IMG/VR virus record: IMGVR_UViG_3300023218_000062
DNA length: 64,000 nt
Strand: one strand, 5' to 3'
Origin: a virus
Lineage: Duplodnaviria > Caudoviricetes
Below, piece by piece: positions 67 to 46,974 of the stretch (position 1 is the stretch's first letter; each line of letters starts with the position of its first letter). Under the pieces are notes generated by a model. It searched no databases, was not told the DNA's origin, and worked only from the letters and a program-made list of their open reading frames with translations. Position numbers and translations under genes: made by a program.

Positions 67-1264
67 TTAAGTTCCATTTTTTAATAATTGTTTTTTTGTT
101 AGCTTGAAATCACTATTTATCCACTCTTGCTTCAACTGGTCAAGTGTTCTACCTATTGAAGGTCCGGGTTTCATACCATGTTGCATAAGATCGTTTCCGT
201 TTACGGGAAAGGCGGGAGCATTCATAGCTTGTCTCACATTCTGTTTTATGGATTCATTATCTAAAAATATAGATAATTCCAAAACATGTTCCGGTTTTGT
301 TTTTCCAATTATGATATCCTCGATATAACGACCTTTCCCCTTATCTCGTTCAGGCATCAAAAACAATCCGAGATTTTTATATTCATTTGGAATTTTTAAA
401 TGATTTGCAAATTTAACGAAATCATTTAAATTAGAGAGCATAGGCGCTAATATTGTTATTGGATTATTAGATTTTTTGATATTCGTTCACTCTCCTTCAT
501 ACTTTGACTATTACATACCATATTGAGCAATTTGTCAATACCTACTTCACATATTCCTTCTAATGCATTCGCCATATTAGGATATGTAATTATTTTTGAT
601 AACTCTATCCAAATACGTTCACCAGAAACATTTTCTAATACTTTTACGTTATTTTTTACGTTTTTGAGTATATCTTGATTAGCTTTTTGGCCGGGATGTT
701 TAGCTAAAAATCTGAAATATCTTAATATTCTAAGATAATCTTCTTGTATTCTTTGATTTGAGTCACCGACGAAACTAGTATTATTAGAGCGTAAATCTTT
801 TAACCTGCCAAAATAATCGTGAAGTTTACCATCCATATCTACAGACATAGCATTATAGGTAAGATCCCTTCGTTTAGCATCTTCTTTAAAGATTTTGTCC
901 AGTCTACACTAGCATGTCTTCCATCAGTATCAGTGTCTACTCGAAGTGTAGTTATCTCATAGGGTTCTCCGTTTATAACAAAAGTTACTGTACCATGTTG
1001 CAAACCGGTTTCAATAACACGTATATTGTTCTCATCAGCAATTTTCAACATTTTATCTGGAATAGCAGTAGTGGCAAGATCTATATCTTTAGGACTCTTT
1101 CCTAATAGGGCGTCGCGCACGGCTCCACCAACTATACGTATTTCTTCTTCATATGATTTAAATAGATTGCCCAGCTTTTTAATATCTGGAGTAATTAATC
1201 GACTAAGATCAGGAGAGGATTGCTGTGATATTTCTAAGAGTTTCAATTTTTGTATTTTCTTCAT
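67..1264 (-). CDS. cca: CCA-adding tRNA nucleotidyltransferase (class II), split into 3 ORFs by two apparent single-base indels
   Basis: Motifs IVGGAVRD, DIDLAT, EITTLRVD, RIQEDYLRILRYFRF, ERIWIEL and C-terminal GxDL..G..PGP.IG; restoring one A at ~890 gives SLKEDAKRRDLTYNAMS joining ORFs 839-1264 and 456-848. Confidence 0.9.
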
Positions 1265-3155: not shown

Positions 3156-3356
3156 CTAACCGAATAGAAGTTGTTTATTGTCTTCGGTTACGGGTATAAT
3201 GTTGCAGCCCTCTCTAAGGCTCTTAGGTAGAGAACTAACACGCATTTCAGCAAGGTGCTTCGACGTTTCTATCCCAATTTCATTTCCATCTTTATCCAAT
3301 ATTTTATATTTTACAGCACTTTCGGTATCTGTTATCATATTTTCATTATCAAACAT
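3156..3356 (-). CDS. hypothetical protein
   Basis: 66-aa ORF with phage-like composition. Confidence 0.55.
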   Translation of the reverse strand: MFDNENMITDTESAVKYKILDKDGNEIGIETSKHLAEMRVSSLPKSLREGCNIIPVTEDNKQLLFG

Positions 3357-3422
3357 TTTCTTAACCGTTCTGGTGTGTCGTATTTATCATTTCCTTTTGT
3401 GAGTGTTAAAAAAGATATAGTT

Positions 3423-3863
3423 TTAAATATAATAAACATCAATCTCAATACCTACATTTTTTTCTACTTCTGATACGATTTTGGATACTTGGGTCCACTC
3501 TAACCCACCCAATCCAACACCAATTTTAGGCATTTTTAATTTCATATTTTTATGTTTAGCCCATTTTGCAGCAAGAGTTAATGATTTTCGTATTGCGTTT
3601 AAATCAGCATAAGGTCCACCAGATCTACCGTAATATTCTTGTGTAAAACAGTTTCCAATAACAAATCCTTCTTCAATTGTAACTGGCTGAAATGTGCCTA
3701 AAAGGTGCTTACCCTTTCCCTTTTTTGCATACTCTTCAAATACTATAGGCCATTTGTCCCGTATTTTCTTTGCAATCCCAGATCCCATTTTTTTTTGACA
3801 GTTGACCCCATGTATAAGGAGTCCACTGGTATTTTTTAGTATATCCTCTTTTATCAGATTCAT
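3423..3863 (-). CDS. macrodomain protein (Poa1p/DarG-like ADP-ribose hydrolase)
   Basis: IHGVNCQKKMGSGIAKKIR, GNCFTQ..YG, MPKIGVGLGGLEW motifs. Confidence 0.9.
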   Translation of the reverse strand: MNLIKEDILKNTSGLLIHGVNCQKKMGSGIAKKIRDKWPIVFEEYAKKGKGKHLLGTFQPVTIEEGFVIGNCFTQEYYGRSGGPYADLNAIRKSLTLAAKWAKHKNMKLKMPKIGVGLGGLEWTQVSKIVSEVEKNVGIEIDVYYI

Positions 3864-8009: not shown

Positions 8010-9989
8010 TTATTTCTCCCGTAGTTTTTTAATAAAATCTGACATTGATATATTATCAGACATATCATTTAGAGTAATCCTCAAAAGATTTAATAATATT
8101 TCCATTCTAGGATTGTGTCTAGCGTAACCGATAATTTTATAAGTGAAGTTTTCGTCAGCTAGTATGGTTATTAGATTTTTTACTATATTTGTTCGATCAT
8201 TCAAATTGTGATCCATAATAAAGGCTTCAACTCTAGGTTTGTTGCTTTTTCGTAGAAGTTTGTTGAATGCTACCCAAAATGTGTTTTTGAAACTATTATC
8301 TTGCGATAGGAAAACTCTACCTGCATCTTCATGTGAAAAAAATGTTGCCAATTCGTTAAATCGTTCGAGTCTTTCATGTGACGAATAAAGGCCCCCATTT
8401 GATTTTATCTTTATCATAAAGTTGTTCAAAATCTCCACCTCATCTCCAACTTTGACATCAATTTTTTCAATTTCGCCTTTTACTTCATAATTAGAGTTTA
8501 TCCATTCATCAATGGAGTTCTTTTTGGCATGGGTAAGACCGTTTCCTCTAGCATTTGTAGCTTCTTTAAGAACATTATACACTTTTTCGTTCTTACCCAT
8601 TTTATTTAAGCCGTTACGAATGTTGCTAGGAGACATTTTAGAGAATATCAATAACATTTTTTCATCTTCTAACATAGGAACCAGTTTTTCAAAAACATCT
8701 TCCTTACCAGAAAGAATTTTTTCCATCAATACCTTGAATAGACTTTCGTCAGCTAATTCTTTGGATATTTCATCATTTGTCATATCCCCCTTTAAGATAT
8801 TCTTGATTCTTTTATTATACGGGCCATCGTTTAATTGTTTCATAAGCTCCGTAGTAGGAACATTTTTTGGTAATATATCTTTCACATCCCCGCCCCTGCT
8901 CCATATATCCATGGCGTAATCTAACCGGCGGGGGGAAATCCTGCCTTTTAATCCATCACTAAGAGAATTCCACCAATCACATGCCGCGATACCATTATCA
9001 GTACCGTATTTCTTCTTAAAATAAGGTTTACTAACAGTATACGGTAGGTTCATAAAGATATGAAATCTGTCTAACTGCGCAGGATCAATTTTTTCTACAT
9101 CGTATACCATTCCATCATCATCTTCTTCGGGGGGATTGATAGCTGCCCATACCAGTTTTAGATTATTGAATTTATGTCCATTGATACTTTTGAATTGCAT
9201 CAGTTCCATAACAGCGTTTCTTACCTTCTTGGGGCTATTGTGAACGAACACTCCTGATCCTGTAGCAAAATTTTCATATGTATCTACTGTTATATCATAT
9301 ACATCTTCATAACCATCTTCTTCGATAGATATTATTCTAAGATTATAACGTACACGATGTGACATAAGAGGATCATTTACATGCAGATTACGAGCATCTT
9401 CATATTTTCCAGTTGTAAGTAAAAATGGATGATCTTCAGTACATCGTATTATTGAACCATTATCCAATGTTATCTTTAGTATATTTGCGTTATTTTCGGT
9501 TTTTCTGGCAGAGTGGCCTCGACCGATGGCCACTTTATTATTAGTAGTATCGTAACTATATACAAAAAATTCTTTCCTATTAACTAATTCTCTTATAGGA
9601 ACAGATTTCCCTTCGGCCAATTGAATTAATGTGTCACCAGTTAAACACCTATTAAATTCGTCAAAAAATATAGCCTTCACTTGATCTTTAGCCAATGCTT
9701 CAGGACGAACCAGAGTGAGAAAGGTATTTCCATTTTCATCAGTCTTTTCTTTAGGGACTCCGATGAAATCTACCCACGGGTCCATAGTAGCAGCAGAAAA
9801 GGATAACCAATCTTTACCGTACATTTCGTTGAACAGATTTTCTATAATAGAAGTCTTGCCAACACCATGCTTTCCGCTGAATATAACATTATATTCATTT
9901 TCAGCCCAAAATTTAAGTTTTTGGTTGCTTATTGCCATTAATTTGTCTCCTTTTTTATCATATGGGAAGCAGTATACCCGACTTGACAA
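8010..9989 (-). CDS. MoxR/dynein-like AAA+ ATPase containing a mini-intein
   Basis: Walker A GKHGVGKT, Walker B FFDEFNR, sensor AAINP, DPAQLDRF, SPRRL. Confidence 0.88.
   Translation of the reverse strand: MSSRVYCFPYDKKGDKLMAISNQKLKFWAENEYNVIFSGKHGVGKTSIIENLFNEMYGKDWLSFSAATMDPWVDFIGVPKEKTDENGNTFLTLVRPEALAKDQVKAIFFDEFNRCLTGDTLIQLAEGKSVPIRELVNRKEFFVYSYDTTNNKVAIGRGHSARKTENNANILKITLDNGSIIRCTEDHPFLLTTGKYEDARNLHVNDPLMSHRVRYNLRIISIEEDGYEDVYDITVDTYENFATGSGVFVHNSPKKVRNAVMELMQFKSINGHKFNNLKLVWAAINPPEEDDDGMVYDVEKIDPAQLDRFHIFMNLPYTVSKPYFKKKYGTDNGIAACDWWNSLSDGLKGRISPRRLDYAMDIWSRGGDVKDILPKNVPTTELMKQLNDGPYNKRIKNILKGDMTNDEISKELADESLFKVLMEKILSGKEDVFEKLVPMLEDEKMLLIFSKMSPSNIRNGLNKMGKNEKVYNVLKEATNARGNGLTHAKKNSIDEWINSNYEVKGEIEKIDVKVGDEVEILNNFMIKIKSNGGLYSSHERLERFNELATFFSHEDAGRVFLSQDNSFKNTFWVAFNKLLRKSNKPRVEAFIMDHNLNDRTNIVKNLITILADENFTYKIIGYARHNPRMEILLNLLRITLNDMSDNISMSDFIKKLREK
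9237..9647 (-). mobile_element. 137-aa mini-intein (Hint domain, no homing endonuclease)
   Basis: Begins CLTGDT, block B TEDHPFL, block F VYDITV, ends VHN followed by Ser (+1); inserted right after DEFNR. Confidence 0.93.
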
Positions 9990-10045: not shown

Positions 10046-10420
10046 ATGAATAAATTGACTGAAAAATTTTTAACTGAAAATAATGCAAGCTTAACTGCTA
10101 TTAAATTTGTAGAAAATAATAAATTAATAGGATTTCCATTTGATCTATTGGATAAAGTCAAGGGTGATCATAAAGGTTATGTCGAGTGGTTAAAGGATAA
10201 CAAAGATAACATTAGGGAATATGATTCCGATAATAATGTAATTCATCATAAAAATTCTAATGGATTTGAATATTGGAAAGAATATGATTCCAATAATAAT
10301 GTAATTTATCATAAAAATTTTAATGGATATGAATATTGGAATGAAATTGAATATTATAATGATGGACGGCTTAAGAGATTTAACGAATTAGAAATTCCAT
10401 GGTTTGAGAAAGCGAGGTAA
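10046..10420 (+). CDS. hypothetical protein with internal EYDSNNNVIxHKNxNGxEYW repeats
   Basis: Two tandem ~20-aa repeats; C-terminus shared with remnants at ~25.9 kb and ~32.6 kb. Confidence 0.65.
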   Translation: MNKLTEKFLTENNASLTAIKFVENNKLIGFPFDLLDKVKGDHKGYVEWLKDNKDNIREYDSDNNVIHHKNSNGFEYWKEYDSNNNVIYHKNFNGYEYWNEIEYYNDGRLKRFNELEIPWFEKAR

Positions 10421-10424
10421 CTAT

Positions 10425-11624
10425 ATGACAGATAGAAAAGCGACAATTGAAAGAATCGAAAGGATTCGTCCACATCCCAATGCAGATGCATTAGAGTTTG
10501 CTGATGTATTAGGGTATCAATGTATTGTAAGAAAAGGTCAATTTAGTGAAGGTGATCTTGTTGTATATATTCCTGAACAAACTCTTGTTCCTGAATATAT
10601 TTTAAAGAATATGAACTTATGGGATAGAGAAAAGGGTATTGGTAAATTGGCTGGTTCTAAAGGTAATCGTGTCAAGGCTGTTAAACTTCGTGGAGAAACT
10701 AGTTTAGGTTTATTATATCCTATTGTTGATGGTATTTTGTGTAATGAATATGGTATAGAAGAGGCCATGTCTGTAAGTGAAGAAGATATTGGGACAGATG
10801 TTTCTCAATTTTTATATATTGTCAAATGGGAACCTGAGATTCCCACACAGATGAGTGGTGAGGTTTGTAATCTTGCAGGTAAGACTTTGAAGTATGATAT
10901 TGAAAATATCAAGAATCATCCTCAATATGGACATGCATTAGAGGTTTTAGGTATTCAATGTGTTATTACAGAAAAGCTTCATGGCACATGGTGTTGTTTT
11001 GGTGTATGGCCTAATTATTATCATGTTAATGGAGAGCGAGTGCAAAGCCACCCTGTTCACGAAGAAATTCCGTATACTAATTGTATTGTAACTTCAAAGG
11101 GACTTTCTTCAAAGGGGTTAGCTTTCAAGGATAATGAAGCTAATACAAACAATTTGTATATGAAAGCCTTCAAGAAATTTCATGAGCGGTTTGATATTTA
11201 TGAAGTAGCGGAAAGTCTCAAAGAAGATGCGTCAGTAAATAAGCCGATATATATCATTGGCGAAATATATGGAAAAGCTGTTCAAGATTTAGATTATGGG
11301 TTGAATGAAACCAATTTCAGAGTATTTGATGTTTATATAGGCGAACCCGGAAAGGGTAAATATCTTCCATACAAAAACATGCTTAAAGTTATGGAAGGAT
11401 TTGGAATTGAAACTGTTCCAGAGCTTTATCGTGGGCCAATTTTTTATGGCACAATAGGGCAATATACTGATGGAAAGGATTCGATCACAGGAACTCACAT
11501 TCGGGAAGGTGCTGTAATTAAACCTCTTGAATATGAAATTCCTGATACTACTATTGGTCGATTGATTTTAAAATCTATTTCTGATGATTATTTGAACAGA
11601 AAAAATGCAACGGAATATAATTAA
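10425..11624 (+). CDS. RNA ligase, DRB0094 family
   Basis: N-terminal OB-like HPNADALE...GDLVVYIPE, motif I TEKLHGT, GEIYG, FRVFDV, REGAVIK, LKSISDDYL. Confidence 0.9.
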   Translation: MTDRKATIERIERIRPHPNADALEFADVLGYQCIVRKGQFSEGDLVVYIPEQTLVPEYILKNMNLWDREKGIGKLAGSKGNRVKAVKLRGETSLGLLYPIVDGILCNEYGIEEAMSVSEEDIGTDVSQFLYIVKWEPEIPTQMSGEVCNLAGKTLKYDIENIKNHPQYGHALEVLGIQCVITEKLHGTWCCFGVWPNYYHVNGERVQSHPVHEEIPYTNCIVTSKGLSSKGLAFKDNEANTNNLYMKAFKKFHERFDIYEVAESLKEDASVNKPIYIIGEIYGKAVQDLDYGLNETNFRVFDVYIGEPGKGKYLPYKNMLKVMEGFGIETVPELYRGPIFYGTIGQYTDGKDSITGTHIREGAVIKPLEYEIPDTTIGRLILKSISDDYLNRKNATEYN

Positions 11625-34747: not shown

Positions 34748-35920
34748 CTACACCTCTATGTCCTCAACTACATCTAAAGTTGTTTCATATTCTTCCAAAT
34801 ACTTTTTAGCATTTTTCATGATAAAATTCTTGTAATCTATTTCCTTACCAGAATATAATCCCATAGCAATATTGAATTGATCCCGCTCCAGTTTTTGTTG
34901 TCCTTTTATAGCATAATCTTTACGCGCTAAGCTCTTGTGAGCTTCGTAAAAGCTATTAGATGCTTTCAAGAGCCGATTCATCATATGGGATACAAAAATC
35001 TCCATGTTTTCAATCTCACGGAGAGCTTGTTCGTCATCTTCGAACATTTGACGTAAATCATCAGACGCTTCTTCTAATACAACTGCCATCAATCTCTTAG
35101 GACTGGTTACAGAATCTTTGGCATGATGCAACGAAACATATTCATTAGTTTTTATCTTAACCATGGTTCCATCTTTTAAACGAATGACATATCCTTCAAT
35201 ACCTTTCATATCGGGAATTGAATTTACAAAATTTTCTACGGTAGAAAAATTTAACACTTCATCTAAATGATTTTTTACTAAAAAGGGGCTCAACCCATAT
35301 TCTTTCATCTCATCAAAAGTCATAAAAGAAAAATCTTCTCTGGATCTAACACCTAGAACAACTAAAGAACAATTTGTATATGGTAAAACTATACGATTTT
35401 TTGCAGAACAATATTCCATGTTCACAGTATAATTTTTGTTTTCCAGGATATTAATATGTTCATGTAAAGTTTTTCCAGTATCGGGATTTTTCATTTCACT
35501 GGCCAAACGATATGCTTCTTCGGCCATCATTGAAGTCAATGAGGTTTTAGATTTATATCTAACATTCATTCCATAATCTAGATAAGAAGATATCAAAGAA
35601 CCATCTTCCTTAGTAGCAATGTAATCAACGTTATCATTTGAAAAATCTAGATCCATGGTAAATGGGTTTTCGCCAAGATTGAAAAATTTGGGAAAAGGAA
35701 GTGAAACCAATTCGGGTTCCTTACCCAAAAGGAACATATGCCCTCGACATTCTAACGCATTTTCTCGTAAAAAATCGGTATATGAACCCAAACGATAAGA
35801 GAACACACGATAGGTTTTCCCGTCATGTGGGCATAATTGATCAACGTGGTAGAACGGAGATTCCTCGTCAGAAGACAATTCCATCAAGTTGTTATATAAG
35901 TTTTGTGTGATATTATTCAT
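34748..35920 (-). CDS. rnlA: T4 Rnl1-like RNA ligase
   Basis: LRENALECRG.MF, PFPKFFNLGE, motif I KEDGSLI, EYCS..NRIV, IEGYVI, KIKT..Y..LH. Confidence 0.92.
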   Translation of the reverse strand: MNNITQNLYNNLMELSSDEESPFYHVDQLCPHDGKTYRVFSYRLGSYTDFLRENALECRGHMFLLGKEPELVSLPFPKFFNLGENPFTMDLDFSNDNVDYIATKEDGSLISSYLDYGMNVRYKSKTSLTSMMAEEAYRLASEMKNPDTGKTLHEHINILENKNYTVNMEYCSAKNRIVLPYTNCSLVVLGVRSREDFSFMTFDEMKEYGLSPFLVKNHLDEVLNFSTVENFVNSIPDMKGIEGYVIRLKDGTMVKIKTNEYVSLHHAKDSVTSPKRLMAVVLEEASDDLRQMFEDDEQALREIENMEIFVSHMMNRLLKASNSFYEAHKSLARKDYAIKGQQKLERDQFNIAMGLYSGKEIDYKNFIMKNAKKYLEEYETTLDVVEDIEV

Positions 35921-37332: not shown

Positions 37333-37412
37333 GTGGGTGTGGCGGAACTGGTAGACGCGCGTGACTCCAAAACAGACACGTATTATGGGTTCGAGTCCCA
37401 TCATTCACCCCA
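37333..37412 (+). pseudogene. degenerate tRNA (Trp CCA-like) with an expanded anticodon arm
   Basis: GTGGGTG/CATTCAC acceptor, GCGGAACTGGTAGACGC D arm, ATGGG-TTCGAGT-CCCAT, CCA; anticodon stem disrupted by ACAGA. Confidence 0.65.
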
Positions 37413-38238: not shown

Positions 38239-38315
38239 TGGTACGGGAGGTGGGATTCGAACCCACACTTTACGGATTTTAAGTCCGTTCCCTCTGCCTA
38301 TTGGGGTACTCCCGC
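38239..38315 (-). tRNA. tRNA-Leu(UAA), second copy, short variable loop
   Basis: GCGGGAG/CTCCCGT, ACGGA-CTTAAAA-TCCGT, TTCGAAT, CCA. Confidence 0.92.
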
Positions 38316-43564: not shown

Positions 43565-43812
43565 GTAGTTGTGATGATAAATCACGTTTGCAAATACCGA
43601 TGACAAAAACGGTGGACAAGAGTACATCGTGGGGCAACCCTACAGTATCGGCCATGCTGATCCGGTGATGGTGACAAAGATATTGTGAGTCGGACGCCAA
43701 GCGACCGGCCCAAAAAAATTCTCGTTAATAGACTACAAGACTGGTCCTCGCATGACCGTCCCGATGAGTAAGAGCAAAGGTCGTTAATTGATTTGCCACC
43801 AGTCTTGTTTTT
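43565..43812 (+). ncRNA. candidate ncRNA A
   Basis: Promoter TTGACA-17-TAGACT plus GATAAATA; ACGGTG/CATCGT stem plus GGG-GCAA-CCC hairpin; ends in ACAAGACTGGT/ACCAGTCTTGT-T run. Confidence 0.55.
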
Positions 43813-44076
43813 TAAACATATAAAGAAGAAAAAATGGGCGGTATATCAGCACCTATAAAAAGCTGGGGATGGACAGCCCCTTAAATGATATATTAACCCT
43901 TTTTTCTTTTCACCTATAGGAGAAAAGGTCCGGTTATTCGGGACTTTTATTTTTCCTACTCTAGAGCCTTTACCATAGATTGAACCTATTGTCAAGAAAA
44001 TTAATTATAAAATTTTTCTTGATTTCTAAATAGAAGTTCGGTAGAATGCACTAAATCGAATAAGAATGGAAATCAA

Positions 44077-44244
44077 ATGAACACGTACAAGAAGATTTCT
44101 CTTTATGGTCCGGGTGGTCGTAACTGTACTTGCTGTGGTCCTGCCCCTAAGCATCGGAAGAAGCATGATCGTATGATTAAGCGTCGTGAGCAGCAGAACG
44201 CTAAGAAGAAGATTGAACGAGAAGTGATGGATGTAAATCTCTAA
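44077..44244 (+). CDS. 55-aa basic Cys-containing protein (missed by ORF track)
   Basis: MNTYKKISLYGPGGRNCTCCGPAPKHRKKHDR... Confidence 0.65.
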   Translation: MNTYKKISLYGPGGRNCTCCGPAPKHRKKHDRMIKRREQQNAKKKIEREVMDVNL

Positions 44245-44295
44245 AAACCGCTTGACATATATGTTTTTTCAGATATAATACTAAGTATAAATAAA

Positions 44296-44522
44296 GTAGT
44301 TCCTGAGCGTCAGAGGGAAAACGGTGTATGAGATCATCGTGGGGAAAACCCTATAGGCCAAATTTGGAAGACTTAAAATAAAACTCATGAAGAACAAATT
44401 AGACGCAGAATTAGAAACTCTGCAACGATACAGGGTCCGGAGGTAATGCCGGTTAGAATGATAGGATAGCGCCTATCACGTTGCCCCGCTAGGTAATTGT
44501 CAATCCCTAGCCTAGTTTGTTC
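44296..44522 (+). ncRNA. candidate ncRNA B (paralogous 5' domain to ncRNA A)
   Basis: TATAAATA at 44286-44293; ACGGTG/CATCGT plus GGG-GAAA-CCC; multibranch 3' domain closed by GAACAAATTAG/CTAGTTTGTTC. Confidence 0.6.
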
Positions 44523-44535
44523 AATTTTAATCTCT

Positions 44536-44612
44536 GGGTCTGTGGCGCAATTGGTTAGCGCAGTGGACTTTTAATCCATTGGTTGTGAGTTCGAGTCTCA
44601 CCAGACCCACCA
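44536..44612 (+). tRNA. tRNA-Lys(UUU)
   Basis: GGGTCTG/CAGACCC, GTGGA-CTTTTAA-TCCAT, CCA. Confidence 0.95.
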
Positions 44613-44752
44613 ATTTTAATACATAGAAAGTTCATTGGAGGAAAAAATGGACAACCGAGAAGGGGGTGATGAACTTCATGTATATAATGTAAAAGCGGTG
44701 GATGCAATTAAACCGAATTAACGCTTGACAAATGGAATGAGATATGTATAAT

Positions 44753-45422
44753 AGGTTGCAAGTGGTCGTTTCAGAGTGAAGGTTCGACACCCTAACCGAA
44801 TAGTTAATCGGCACCTGTTTAACGATTACTTCATGTTTCCAGCCCGATCTAAATATCGGATATGAAACATAAAGAGGCCCAAAGCTGAAAAGGCAACACA
44901 CCTAGAGTGTGCGGTAGAGCCTAAGCTACCTCCGAGGCGGGAATTTTTTAATATTTGGTTGGTTCATCAAGAACACCTTATAATTCGTTACACCGACCAA
45001 AGTTTTTGACTGTAAGTAGTGATGAAATCTTATAGTCTTATCTTCAACAAGCCGTAATTCAATCGGGCTTTGTACTTGAGATTGAACGAGATATTGCTGG
45101 CTGTAGGGTAATATCATCACGTATCTACAGGGCGAGGCTGCCGTCTTAGCAGTCAACATATAGTCTCAGTCTCGCAGAGACTTTATAAAACACAGTGAGC
45201 GCGAGATTAACTGGAAAACGATAACTGGCAGGTTGGGAGAGCGACCCAATGCCCTTGGCGACAAGGCAGCGTAGTGTGACCGGTTTTTGTAGATAACGTG
45301 CAAACCTTGTTCTAGACGAGTTAGGCTAGGAGACGAGAAACTCCGAAAAATCAAATTCAGGGCACATAGCAAGGGCGCTTGTAGCAGTCTGTGAAGCGCG
45401 GCCCGCGTGGAGACTGCTATTT
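44753..45422 (+). ncRNA. large ornate ncRNA, GOLLD-like candidate
   Basis: Promoter at 44725-44752; ~670 nt without a plus-strand ORF, GC-richer, many helices, T-loop-like GGTTCGACACC, TGTAGGGT...CAGGGCGAGG segment, adjacent to a tRNA. Confidence 0.6.
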
Positions 45423-45462
45423 CAATTTCAATGATACTGTATTTTAAGAGGGTGGTGGAATA

Positions 45463-46056
45463 TGAAATCAATTGAAGAATGGAGCGCAACACGTTGGATT
45501 TTTACCGCAATGGCATCTATCATCTGCCGGATTGATCGGTGAAAAGGTGGTGGAGAGAGAAGTATTTGAAAATAGTTTTCAATATAATGAAGCACGAAAG
45601 ACCGCCATCGCTACATATGAAGCACAGTTGACTGAAATTAATTCCCAACTTCGAAACAACAATCTTTCAGAACGTGAAAGAAGCAATCTACGCTACTCAT
45701 AGTGTATGGCGCAGTAATCATGGAATGGTTGAAGGTGATTGTCCGTCTATTGGATATGGCATTCTGTATGATACTTCTTTGACCAATCCACAGCGAGCTA
45801 CGGCTCAAGCGGCTGACAAACGATACCTTCTGAATCTCTAGCCACAATTGAACAAGCTGAACCTAATGGTATCTTCGCCAGTAAGAATACGGCAGCTACG
45901 TGGGTATTCTGTGTGGGTAGCGCGGGATCGTTAAATCCAGTATACGTTGAAACCAAGGTTACTGCATATCCGTATTATCCAGTTAATGTTGATTATGAGA
46001 CCAACAGGGTTACTCAAGCTGGTGAATCGAATGTTAATGTGACGGTTAACCGCTAG
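45463..46056 (+). pseudogene. fused and frameshifted fragments of two phage genes (membrane protein plus lipoprotein-family C-terminus)
   Basis: VEREVFENSFQY fragment, then C.SIGYG...TNPQ...QAEPNGIF...ATWVFC...PVYVE fragment across frames. Confidence 0.45.
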
Positions 46057-46087
46057 ATCAATTGAACGGTAGTCAATATAATAATGA

Positions 46088-46116
46088 AACAGGGGGCTAG
46101 CCCCCTGTTTCTTTTT
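46088..46116 (+). terminator. intrinsic terminator
   Basis: AAACAGGGGG-CTAG-CCCCCTGTTT followed by T run. Confidence 0.8.
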
Positions 46117-46170: not shown

Positions 46171-46974
46171 ATGATGACACTAATCAAAAACCGAGAAATG
46201 TACGATACTTTCGTTAAATTCCTTCCAGAGTTGGAGCGTGACGAAGTATATTTTCTTTCATTGTCAGCACGTAATAAGTATCTGACCGAAGATGAACGTG
46301 AAGCCTATTCTCTCAGCAGAACTGAAATGTTTTCCCGCCATATTGCACATGATAAGGAAGGCATCGAATACGCTATCAAGAAGATGGAAGCCGAACTAGA
46401 AGTAAAGACTACTCGTAGTGGTCATCGTATTCCAGAGAAAGCATTGGTAGTATACTTTAATATTCATCCTTCTTCAATGACCAGAGCGTATACTTCATTC
46501 AAAGATCAAATGAACGCACATTACGATGAAATCGTTAAATCATTGATGAAGGGCTCGAATCCACATTACCATCCATTCTTAGGAATGCGTACTAAGTTGA
46601 TGAATCATATACAAAAATCCTCTTCAAGAAAGGAATGGGTGGATATAGATATTGATATTGATGCACTTGATGAAGAAACCGCATTGCGATATTCTGCATC
46701 GATAGCTAATCCTTTATTCATGCATTCTATCAATAATGTAAGAATCAAGACTCAGGGTGGTGTTCATCTTTTAGTGAAACGGAGCGATCTTAACACGAAA
46801 CCGATGAATATTCCATTGCATAAACTGATAGGAAACATTCATAAAGAACTCAAAGGGCTTGGCGGGGAATGTAAATTTAACAACAACGCCATGGTACCAT
46901 TACCGGGAACTAATCAAGCTGGTAAATTGGTAGTTATTCATGATACAACTCTTGACAATTTAGTTTTAATTTGA
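46171..46974 (+). CDS. hypothetical protein with AEP (primase-polymerase)-like motifs
   Basis: WVDIDID (DxD), KTQGGVHL (GxH), MVPLPGT. Confidence 0.5.
   Translation: MMTLIKNREMYDTFVKFLPELERDEVYFLSLSARNKYLTEDEREAYSLSRTEMFSRHIAHDKEGIEYAIKKMEAELEVKTTRSGHRIPEKALVVYFNIHPSSMTRAYTSFKDQMNAHYDEIVKSLMKGSNPHYHPFLGMRTKLMNHIQKSSSRKEWVDIDIDIDALDEETALRYSASIANPLFMHSINNVRIKTQGGVHLLVKRSDLNTKPMNIPLHKLIGNIHKELKGLGGECKFNNNAMVPLPGTNQAGKLVVIHDTTLDNLVLI

Follow-up and report, generated by a model that had tools for sequence, protein, structure and literature searches.

A candidate modular non-coding RNA gene beside tRNA-Lys in an uncultured giant phage

To our knowledge, large structured phage RNAs encoded beside transfer RNA (tRNA) genes, such as GOLLD and ROOL, comprise few classes and are among the least understood RNAs. 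Does positions 44753-45422 on the plus strand of an uncultured giant phage encode another RNA of this kind? The window that contains this stretch is the whole DNA segment analysed, 64,000 nucleotides (nt) long, and the longest contig in the database entry of the protein used below as an anchor is 270,653 base pairs (bp). A sequence-only reading had described the stretch as an ornate, GOLLD-like RNA of ∼670 nt with its own promoter. Comparison with related loci suggests that it is probably a real, modular phage non-coding RNA (ncRNA) of a new family. The RNA matches no described RNA family and is neither GOLLD nor ROOL. The description as an ornate RNA of ∼670 nt stands in that conserved RNA structure is found at both ends; it falls short in that comparative support is limited to ∼200 of the 670 nt and the two supported ends occur separately in relatives.

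The features of the locus are as follows.

44725-44752, plus strand: sigma-70-type promoter (TTGACA at 44725-44730, 16-nt spacer, TATAAT at 44747-44752)
44760-44831, plus strand: 5′ domain, an 11-bp closing stem (44760-44770 with 44821-44831, including G.U pairs) around a 46-nt core (44772-44817)
44833-44870, plus strand: long hairpin AUGUUUC...GAAACAU with an inner CCGAU/AUCGG helix, from minimum free energy (MFE) prediction only
44871-44949, plus strand: small three-way junction with a U6 run (44944-44949) at its end, from MFE prediction
44950-45100, plus strand: A+T-richer linker (G+C ∼0.35-0.40), a reading of the sequence, with no homologue found
45101-45295, plus strand: G+C-rich part (∼0.48-0.50) with several hairpins, from MFE prediction and composition only
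45296-45423, plus strand: 3′ domain of four elements, homologous in the related loci L027 (1677-1795) and L028 (287-405) at 125-147 bits
45420-45429, plus strand: U-rich tail UUUCAAUUUC after the terminal hairpin
45462-46056, plus strand: phrog_24725-type gene of ∼198 codons, frameshifted; its relatives of ∼190-205 residues are intact

The promoter matches the sigma-70 consensus at 12 of 12 positions, as the sequence-only reading had claimed, and predicts a transcription start at ∼44759. The absence of a sense open reading frame (ORF) was likewise confirmed: no plus-strand ORF of at least 30 codons is present in 44753-45422, and the longest stop-to-stop plus frame spans 47 codons. A tRNA-Lys(UUU) gene (44536-44612) lies upstream of the promoter.

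Conserved structure at the two ends

Related loci were collected by protein alignment using the downstream 267-residue protein (46171-46974) as an anchor, which has 126 homologues from 89% identity downward. The collection comprises 24 loci from IMG/VR, 18 from Joint Genome Institute (JGI) metagenomes, many of them from salt- or soda-lake sediments, and three from metagenome-assembled genomes (MAGs); contigs encoding P0002-P0004, whose anchor proteins are 86-89% identical, were left out of the comparison. By nhmmer, similarity to the RNA is found in only three fetched loci (L026, L027 and L028) and is limited to its ends. L027 and L028 are near-identical to each other, and their anchor protein is 49% identical to that of the window. 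None of the 24 IMG/VR loci shows RNA similarity, and nothing convincing emerged from ten of the IMG/VR contigs searched in full with a covariance model of the 5′ domain (R1), five of which were also searched with a model of the 3′ domain (R2). The three MAG contigs with the anchor gene contain neither module, and their only DNA match is the tRNA-Lys. The anchor protein and the HerA protein, each used singly against IMG/VR, returned nothing. No paralogue of the RNA is present inside the window. Searches of GenBank phages by blastn matched neither the whole stretch nor the 3′ domain and gave, for the 5′ domain, only chance 21-nt matches inside a Gordonia phage protein gene.

In the core of the 5′ domain, two hairpins form a closed junction whose sequence is extremely constrained. 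Inside the closing helix, a single A precedes a T-arm-like hairpin (AGG-UUCGACAC-CCU, 44780-44793), which is followed by AA and a second hairpin (CCGA-AUAGUUAA-UCGG, 44796-44811). In L026, a soda-lake relative, the 46-nt core is identical and lies within a 57-nt identical block whose flanks both diverge. The neighbouring protein of L026 is only 54% identical, and the identity of the core therefore indicates strong purifying selection. The outer stem differs in L026 but is compensated (GTCGTT/AACGAT to GTGGTT/AACCAC), and the domain likewise sits directly 3′ of a TTGACA/TATAAT promoter. A third copy, L043, was found by an exact-pattern scan of IMG/VR, and the inner 37 nt of its core differ at one base. 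The helix that encloses the L043 core has a wholly different sequence and still pairs, with four of six pairs changed on both sides. Each of the 13 pairs in the 46-nt alignment is a standard pair in both of the distinct sequences (100% of cells paired), whereas slid controls gave 23-42% paired cells and 0-1 double changes.

The L043 contig has a G+C content of 31% and no detectable protein similarity to the window or to L026, which means that unrelated phages share the core by conservation or by transfer. In L043, the core forms a compact, stem-closed element of ∼50 nt (1020-1073, minus strand) located 5 nt upstream of a tRNA-Tyr gene on the same strand, in the order tRNA-Lys, tRNA-Leu, small ORF, element and tRNA-Tyr. 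This position inside a tRNA cluster suggests that the element could be released by tRNA processing. A pattern of the core that leaves the stems free has no match in 185,579 prokaryote species genomes, and the core is thus not a copied host tRNA, transfer-messenger RNA or attachment site. A host attachment site or tRNA fragment was rejected on this ground and because no tRNA is called: neither ARAGORN nor the Rfam tRNA model RF00005 reports a cloverleaf in 44753-45425.

The T-loop-like GGTTCGAC noted earlier near the 5′ end is present at 44781-44788. A T-loop is a five-nucleotide U...A motif in a 7-nt loop, with a G-C closing pair and a position-3 C available for a tertiary pair (PMC4810234). 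In an alternative drawing of the first hairpin, G(44782)-C(44790) closes the 7-nt loop UUCGACA, giving U1 U2 C3 G4 A5. These T-loop marks are present at the sequence level only and are invariant in the three loci. R1 matches the 5′ domain over its full length with the closing stem intact, and its weak secondary matches are tRNA T-arms. A match of R1 in a further locus (L010, E=0.004) lies in apparent coding sequence without the loops and was rejected as chance.

The 3′ domain is composed of four elements. The first is a hairpin (45306-45320) with the conserved palindrome UCUAGA (45311-45316) at its tip, and the second is the hairpin GGAG-ACGAGAAA-CUCC (45329-45344). A conserved single strand, GAAAAAUCAAAUUCAGGGC (45345-45363), follows. 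The fourth element is a terminal bipartite hairpin formed by TAGCAGTCT (45382-45390) and AGACTGCTA (45411-45419), with GGCC (45400-45403) in its inner loop. The copies in L027 and L028 are ∼80% identical to the 3′ domain of the window and differ by indels of 10 nt and 1 nt, which show that the domain is not coding. Pair counting and RNAalifold gave 28 pairs with 98.8% of cells paired. Six pairs are changed on both sides (for example, GGAG/CUCC to GCAG/CUGC), four of them in the terminal hairpin, whereas slid controls showed 32-51% paired cells and 0-1 double changes. Several conserved G.U pairs would turn into A.C mismatches if the minus strand were the one folded, and the functional strand is therefore plus. 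Outside the helices, GCAAAC, GUUAGGCUAG and AAUCAAAUU-AGGGC are conserved, as are the UCUAGA that caps the first hairpin and the GGCC in the terminal loop. The 3′ domain is complete in a full-length match to R2; a match of R2 in L034 (E=2.2) was rejected as chance.

The terminal hairpin (45382-45419) has a 9-10-bp stem with a folding energy of -21 kcal/mol and is followed by UUUCAAUU, which contains five U in eight positions; the same arrangement is present in L028. The hairpin and its U-rich tail plausibly represent a non-canonical intrinsic terminator and the 3′ end of the RNA. A simple terminator scan makes no call here because the stem is bipartite.

In L028, the RNA that carries the 3′ domain is followed at 417-505 by a near-perfect long hairpin (13-bp outer stem, then U6), which is far stronger as a terminator than the conserved 3′ hairpin.

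Between the two domains, the segment 44832-45295 has no homologue in any fetched locus, in any of the ten viral contigs searched in full or in the MAG genomes. The helices named in this segment are predictions only. The L026 sequence that corresponds to the long hairpin (44833-44870) is different. The linker contains a helix of TTGGTTGGT (44955-44963) with ACCGACCAA (44992-45000), and the G+C-rich part contains predicted hairpins that include CUGUAGGGU.., GUCUC-GCA-GAGAC (∼45169-45181), GGUUGGG-AGAGCGA-CCCAA and GCCCUUG-GCGA-CAAGGC (45251-45267). At least ten helices had been proposed for the RNA. The helices quoted are all present at their positions, but covariation backs only TAGCAGTCT/AGACTGCTA; the others named lie in the part that lacks homologues.

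Thermodynamics alone is only suggestive, and the strong evidence is comparative and confined to the two ends. Folding z-scores of the whole RNA are -1.95 on the plus strand versus -1.76 on the minus strand (60 shuffles), and -2.17 versus -1.67 in a separate run. The middle alone gives -2.25 versus -0.91, the second half (45085-45425) gives ∼0 on both strands, and most 150-nt windows fold unremarkably. The G+C content of the stretch is 0.45, compared with 0.35 for the window. That of the middle, 0.44, lies at the 96.5th percentile, a level that conserved protein genes also reach.

Described RNA families and protein-coding alternatives

The window was compared with all 4227 Rfam families by cmscan at gathering scores, and a 1.4-kb slice (44300-45700) was compared with permissive filters at E<=10. 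At gathering scores, the window matches are tRNAs only, and none falls in 44753-45422. The permissive search of the slice detected no GOLLD (RF01998), ROOL (RF03087) or other large-RNA family. Two additional matches appear, both at chance level: one lies over the tRNA on the reverse strand, and the other is to Cyano-2 over a 23-nt hairpin (E=1.5) and is the only match inside the stretch at this threshold.

GOLLD and ROOL come from phages or prophages, are encoded near tRNA islands and assemble into nanocages made of RNA alone, in agreement with the background given in the sequence-only reading; the GOLLD cage is a homo-14-mer and the ROOL cage an 8-mer, and in GOLLD the 3′ region is conserved and the 5′ region variable (PMC12286853). 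The RNA at 44753-45422 resembles GOLLD as a large phage RNA adjoining tRNA genes and in its conserved 3′ and variable 5′ parts, but it has no covariance-model match at any threshold tried and no common sequence motif. It is also shorter (∼670 nt versus 800 or more for GOLLD), and its 3′ domain spans only ∼130 nt and occurs also on a 250-nt RNA in L028. With ROOL, a ∼600-nt RNA of unknown function, it shares the phage or prophage origin near tRNA islands. However, no ROOL model match is observed, and the ends of the RNA are separable modules that stand apart in L026, L043 and L027/L028, unlike the intertwined, co-evolving 5′ and 3′ regions of ROOL. A resemblance of the TGTAGGGT...CAGGGCGA segment (∼45102-45135) to GOLLD had been suggested; the segment is present, but the resemblance finds no computed support. 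The GOLLD-like reading therefore did not survive, as the Rfam GOLLD and ROOL models give no match even under relaxed filters, and a divergent GOLLD or ROOL RNA is a very improbable explanation.

The 5′ core was also compared with the YrlA Y RNAs, which are modular, occur also in phages and contain a tRNA-like domain with a T stem-loop ahead of a D stem-loop (PMC4201824). The core likewise has a T-arm-like hairpin first and then a hairpin of 4 bp with an 8-nt loop, together with a long closing stem. It differs in that no acceptor-like stem-loop is inserted between the two hairpins and the second loop lacks GG. Identity with YrlA was rejected, given that no Rfam match is found and that a regular-expression search detected no GNCGAAN0-1G motif in 44753-45430. 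No Ro60/TROVE gene is present among the eight window ORFs of at least 300 residues, a scan that covers the larger ORFs in 64 kb of the ∼270-kb contig. A hammerhead-like three-way junction was rejected because its core residues do not fit by eye and no Rfam match is observed.

Another explanation is that a minus-strand ORF is a real gene and that the RNA structure is incidental. Three minus-strand ORFs of 89, 77 and 108 residues tile the stretch, as this explanation requires. The 108- and 77-residue ORFs have no homologue among 5.8 billion proteins and not even a self-match, which indicates that no gene was called at these ORFs on the window's own contig, and the 89-residue ORF, like the other two, has no PHROG or Pfam match. 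The region of the 108-residue ORF carries the 10-nt and 1-nt indels relative to L028. Across the 89-residue ORF, the 57-nt identical block lies between unalignable flanks, which is not a coding pattern, and the substitutions observed in the stretch keep base pairs. Ten stop-to-stop frames gave no PHROG or Pfam match at E<=0.01; only two PHROG matches have E below 1 (0.059 and 0.16), and both are at chance level. A translated and conserved minus-strand ORF had been named as an observation that would overturn the RNA; with no homologues and a non-coding pattern of conservation, the ncRNA reading is not refuted, and a coding minus strand has very little probability.

Transcript units and module exchange

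The relatives differ from the window in how the conserved parts are assembled. In L026, the 5′ domain heads a unit of ∼190 nt; after this unit come a duplicated promoter block and then a third unit that is unrelated. The unit ahead of the 5′-domain unit has a tail that matches window positions 43736-43829. In L027 and L028, the 3′ domain is fused directly behind a different element, the copy-A core, to form a ∼250-nt RNA. The copy-A core is located in the window at 43606-43727, 1.1 kb upstream of the RNA, and has no sequence similarity to any part of 44753-45422. The two conserved modules are found together in no relative, and the phage group exchanges RNA domains among promoter-driven units.

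The copy-A core belongs to a pair of upstream RNAs in the window, copy A and copy B (43565-44530). These RNAs are comparable to the RNA at 44753-45422 in that they come from the same phage and the same tRNA-Lys neighbourhood, follow their own consensus promoters and are undescribed, but the 5′ domain studied here is another module. The fusion of the copy-A core to the 3′ domain in L027/L028 places the copy A and copy B RNAs and the RNA studied here in one module pool. A pattern search for the copy-A core in IMG/VR returned six unrelated, high-G+C chance matches.

Several minor features of these loci were recorded. In L026, the ∼45-nt promoter block, including the first nine transcribed bases, is duplicated (3352-3395 and 3576-3632) before two unrelated small RNA units, and the 5′-domain unit contains a candidate pseudoknot between the hairpin-loop CCUAAC and a downstream GUUAGG. 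A 55-residue basic CxxC protein (phrog_25404, E=2e-12) is encoded between RNA units in both the window (44077-44244, plus strand) and L027/L028 (573-738 in L028), with 53% identity. At the place of the RNA, between tRNA-Lys and the anchor gene, L028 instead contains four protein genes.

A single primary transcript of ∼670 nt is slightly favoured. Two or more small RNAs arranged end to end, one of ∼190 nt (44759-44949) and one of ∼380-470 nt ending in the 3′ domain, are an appreciable but lesser possibility; the second unit would arise from a weak internal promoter or by processing. This arrangement is suggested by L026, whose 5′-domain unit stops after ∼190 nt, just before a fresh consensus promoter. 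The U6 run at 44944-44949 ends 191 nt past the predicted start, which equals the length of the L026 unit, and may act as a weak internal terminator. The A+T-richer linker after it contains two promoter-like sites, TTGGTT-18-TATAAT (ending at 44984) and TTGACT-19-TATAGT (45006-45036), and the separate occurrence of the modules in relatives fits two RNAs as well. However, no stem of at least 5 bp directly precedes the U6 run, the terminator scan gave no call, and the run pairs back as the closing helix of the predicted three-way junction. The internal sites are off-consensus, with three of six matches in the -35 box or a 19-nt spacer, compared with 11-12 of 12 matches in other promoters nearby in the phage. 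The TTGGTTGGT/ACCGACCAA helix would bury the internal TATAAT in the RNA, which has no bearing on the DNA.

Exchange of parts also raises the explanation that the stretch is non-functional mosaic DNA, a recombination scar of RNA-module fragments and decayed filler that is transcribed by a chance promoter cassette. Shuffling of modules and promoters is demonstrable in the phage group, the adjacent gene is frameshifted, and the middle combines a lack of homologues with weak folding statistics. Against a scar, both modules are complete, as judged from the full-length R1 and R2 matches and the intact closing stems, and the 5′ core is identical in L026 despite the divergence of its neighbouring protein. 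Moreover, the filler lacks detectable coding remnants, the middle having no tblastx match to related loci that would mark a decayed coding sequence, and G+C is raised by 10 points throughout. Phage genomes rarely retain 0.5 kb of junk. Mosaic DNA is thus an improbable account of the locus.

The downstream phrog_24725-type gene bears on whether the RNA is instead a long structured 5′ leader that regulates this gene in cis. No promoter is found between 45425 and the ATG at 45462, and the first strong canonical terminator lies only at 46086-46111, 3′ of the gene, so read-through of the 3′ hairpin would join the gene to the transcript. The gene is, however, split over at least two reading frames and probably four: residues 49-109 of its relative P0123 align to 45641-45802 and residues 124-193 to 45835-46053, in two frames. 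It is either a pseudogene, which would be unusual in a phage, or an assembly error. In L028, the 3′ domain precedes the strong terminator and then a new promoter, and no protein gene follows the 5′ core in L026 or L043. A gene-specific leader is therefore unlikely, since both modules remain intact beside a broken gene and are followed by different features in the relatives; it ranks below mosaic DNA in probability.

Possible role and genomic setting

Overall, the locus is best explained, with somewhat better than even confidence, as a plus-strand ncRNA gene of a giant phage drawn from an undescribed set of modular RNAs. In the proposed mechanism, the host RNA polymerase would transcribe the RNA early in infection, and the stem-closed 5′ domain and the 3′ hairpin would protect its ends. 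The invariant loops and single strands would be the contact sites of a partner, and the ∼465-nt middle would serve as a lineage-specific spacer or scaffold. The 5′ domain would present a surface like that of the tRNA elbow, through which the RNA might bind, titrate or recruit a host factor that handles tRNA or translation. An elbow-like surface is proposed because the first hairpin bears all the sequence marks of a T-arm (the 7-nt loop UUCGACA, closed by a G-C pair) and precedes a hairpin of 4 bp and an 8-nt loop. The extreme constraint on the core would likewise point to a conserved host partner, plausibly within the tRNA or translation machinery. That the RNA acts as a decoy for a factor that binds the tRNA elbow is a tentative model, and it fits the tRNA-Lys and RNA-ligase setting of the locus.

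Two further models were considered. Homo-oligomerization through the conserved palindromes UCUAGA and GGCC would be conceivable from the sequence but is unlikely. A broader and rather speculative model holds that a pool of at least four RNA domains (the T-loop core, the 3′ domain, the copy-A core and the copy-A tail) is recombined into ncRNAs of 190-670 nt, in the way that proteins exchange domains, with each domain serving as a decoy or handle for a different host factor. In this model, the self-complementary UCUAGA and GGCC of the 3′ domain could let the 670-nt form assemble into kissing-loop homo-oligomers, similar to the ROOL and GOLLD cages but with an unrelated fold.

Several points weigh against the interpretation as a modular ncRNA. 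The evidence comes from very few sequences, and the middle two-thirds of the stretch are without support: the middle makes up ∼70% of the length and has no homologue and weak thermodynamic support. The 3′ evidence consists of three sequences that amount to two effective lineages, L027 and L028 being near-identical, and the statistics are correspondingly thin, with 3 of 500 shuffles reaching the observed covariation. The 5′ core is also represented by three sequences (window, L026 and L043) and two effective lineages; 26 of 500 shuffles reach its observed covariation, and its inner hairpins are neither supported nor refuted because they never vary. Exact and relaxed DNA patterns of both domains recovered only L043 from IMG/VR, where the scans require exact patterns and the absence is partly method-limited. 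Both the promoter and the terminator are predicted from sequence. The second hairpin does not have the GG found in a true D-loop, which leaves mimicry of the elbow as a model, and the frameshift in the neighbouring gene indicates that the region may be decaying.

The locus adds a candidate large phage RNA that is unrelated to GOLLD and ROOL by sequence and by model. Its unusual trait is that the conserved parts act as exchangeable domains, and the 46-nt core is kept near letter-for-letter in two phages that have nothing else detectable in common. Being short, the core lends itself to probing, pull-down and structural experiments. Should the shuffling of RNA domains prove real, it would allow the function of large phage RNAs to be dissected piecewise.

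The surroundings of the RNA are rich in tRNA genes, with 15 detected within the 64-kb window by ARAGORN. One of these, a tRNA-Phe at 37333-37412 (plus strand), has the unusual anticodon AAA and a low Rfam tRNA score (41.8 bits); a second tRNA-Leu(UAA) is located at 38239-38315 on the opposite strand. Two RNA ligase genes (34748-35920, minus strand, and 10404-11624, plus strand) lie in this tRNA-rich region. One ligase is of the T4 Rnl1 type, with RNA_lig_T4_1 and T4_Rnl1_C domains, and the other contains an RNA_ligase domain and a PHA02142 OB-fold domain. With two RNA ligases, the phage has tRNA-repair enzymes alongside its own tRNA-Lys. Between tRNA-Lys and the promoter of the RNA, a 24-codon ORF (44648-44722, plus strand) with a strong GGAGG ribosome-binding site ends 3 nt before the -35 box. 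The window also encodes a HerA-type ATPase, and a 659-residue AAA-type ATPase ORF (8010-9989, minus strand) contains an intein splicing domain (PF14890, E=7e-16).

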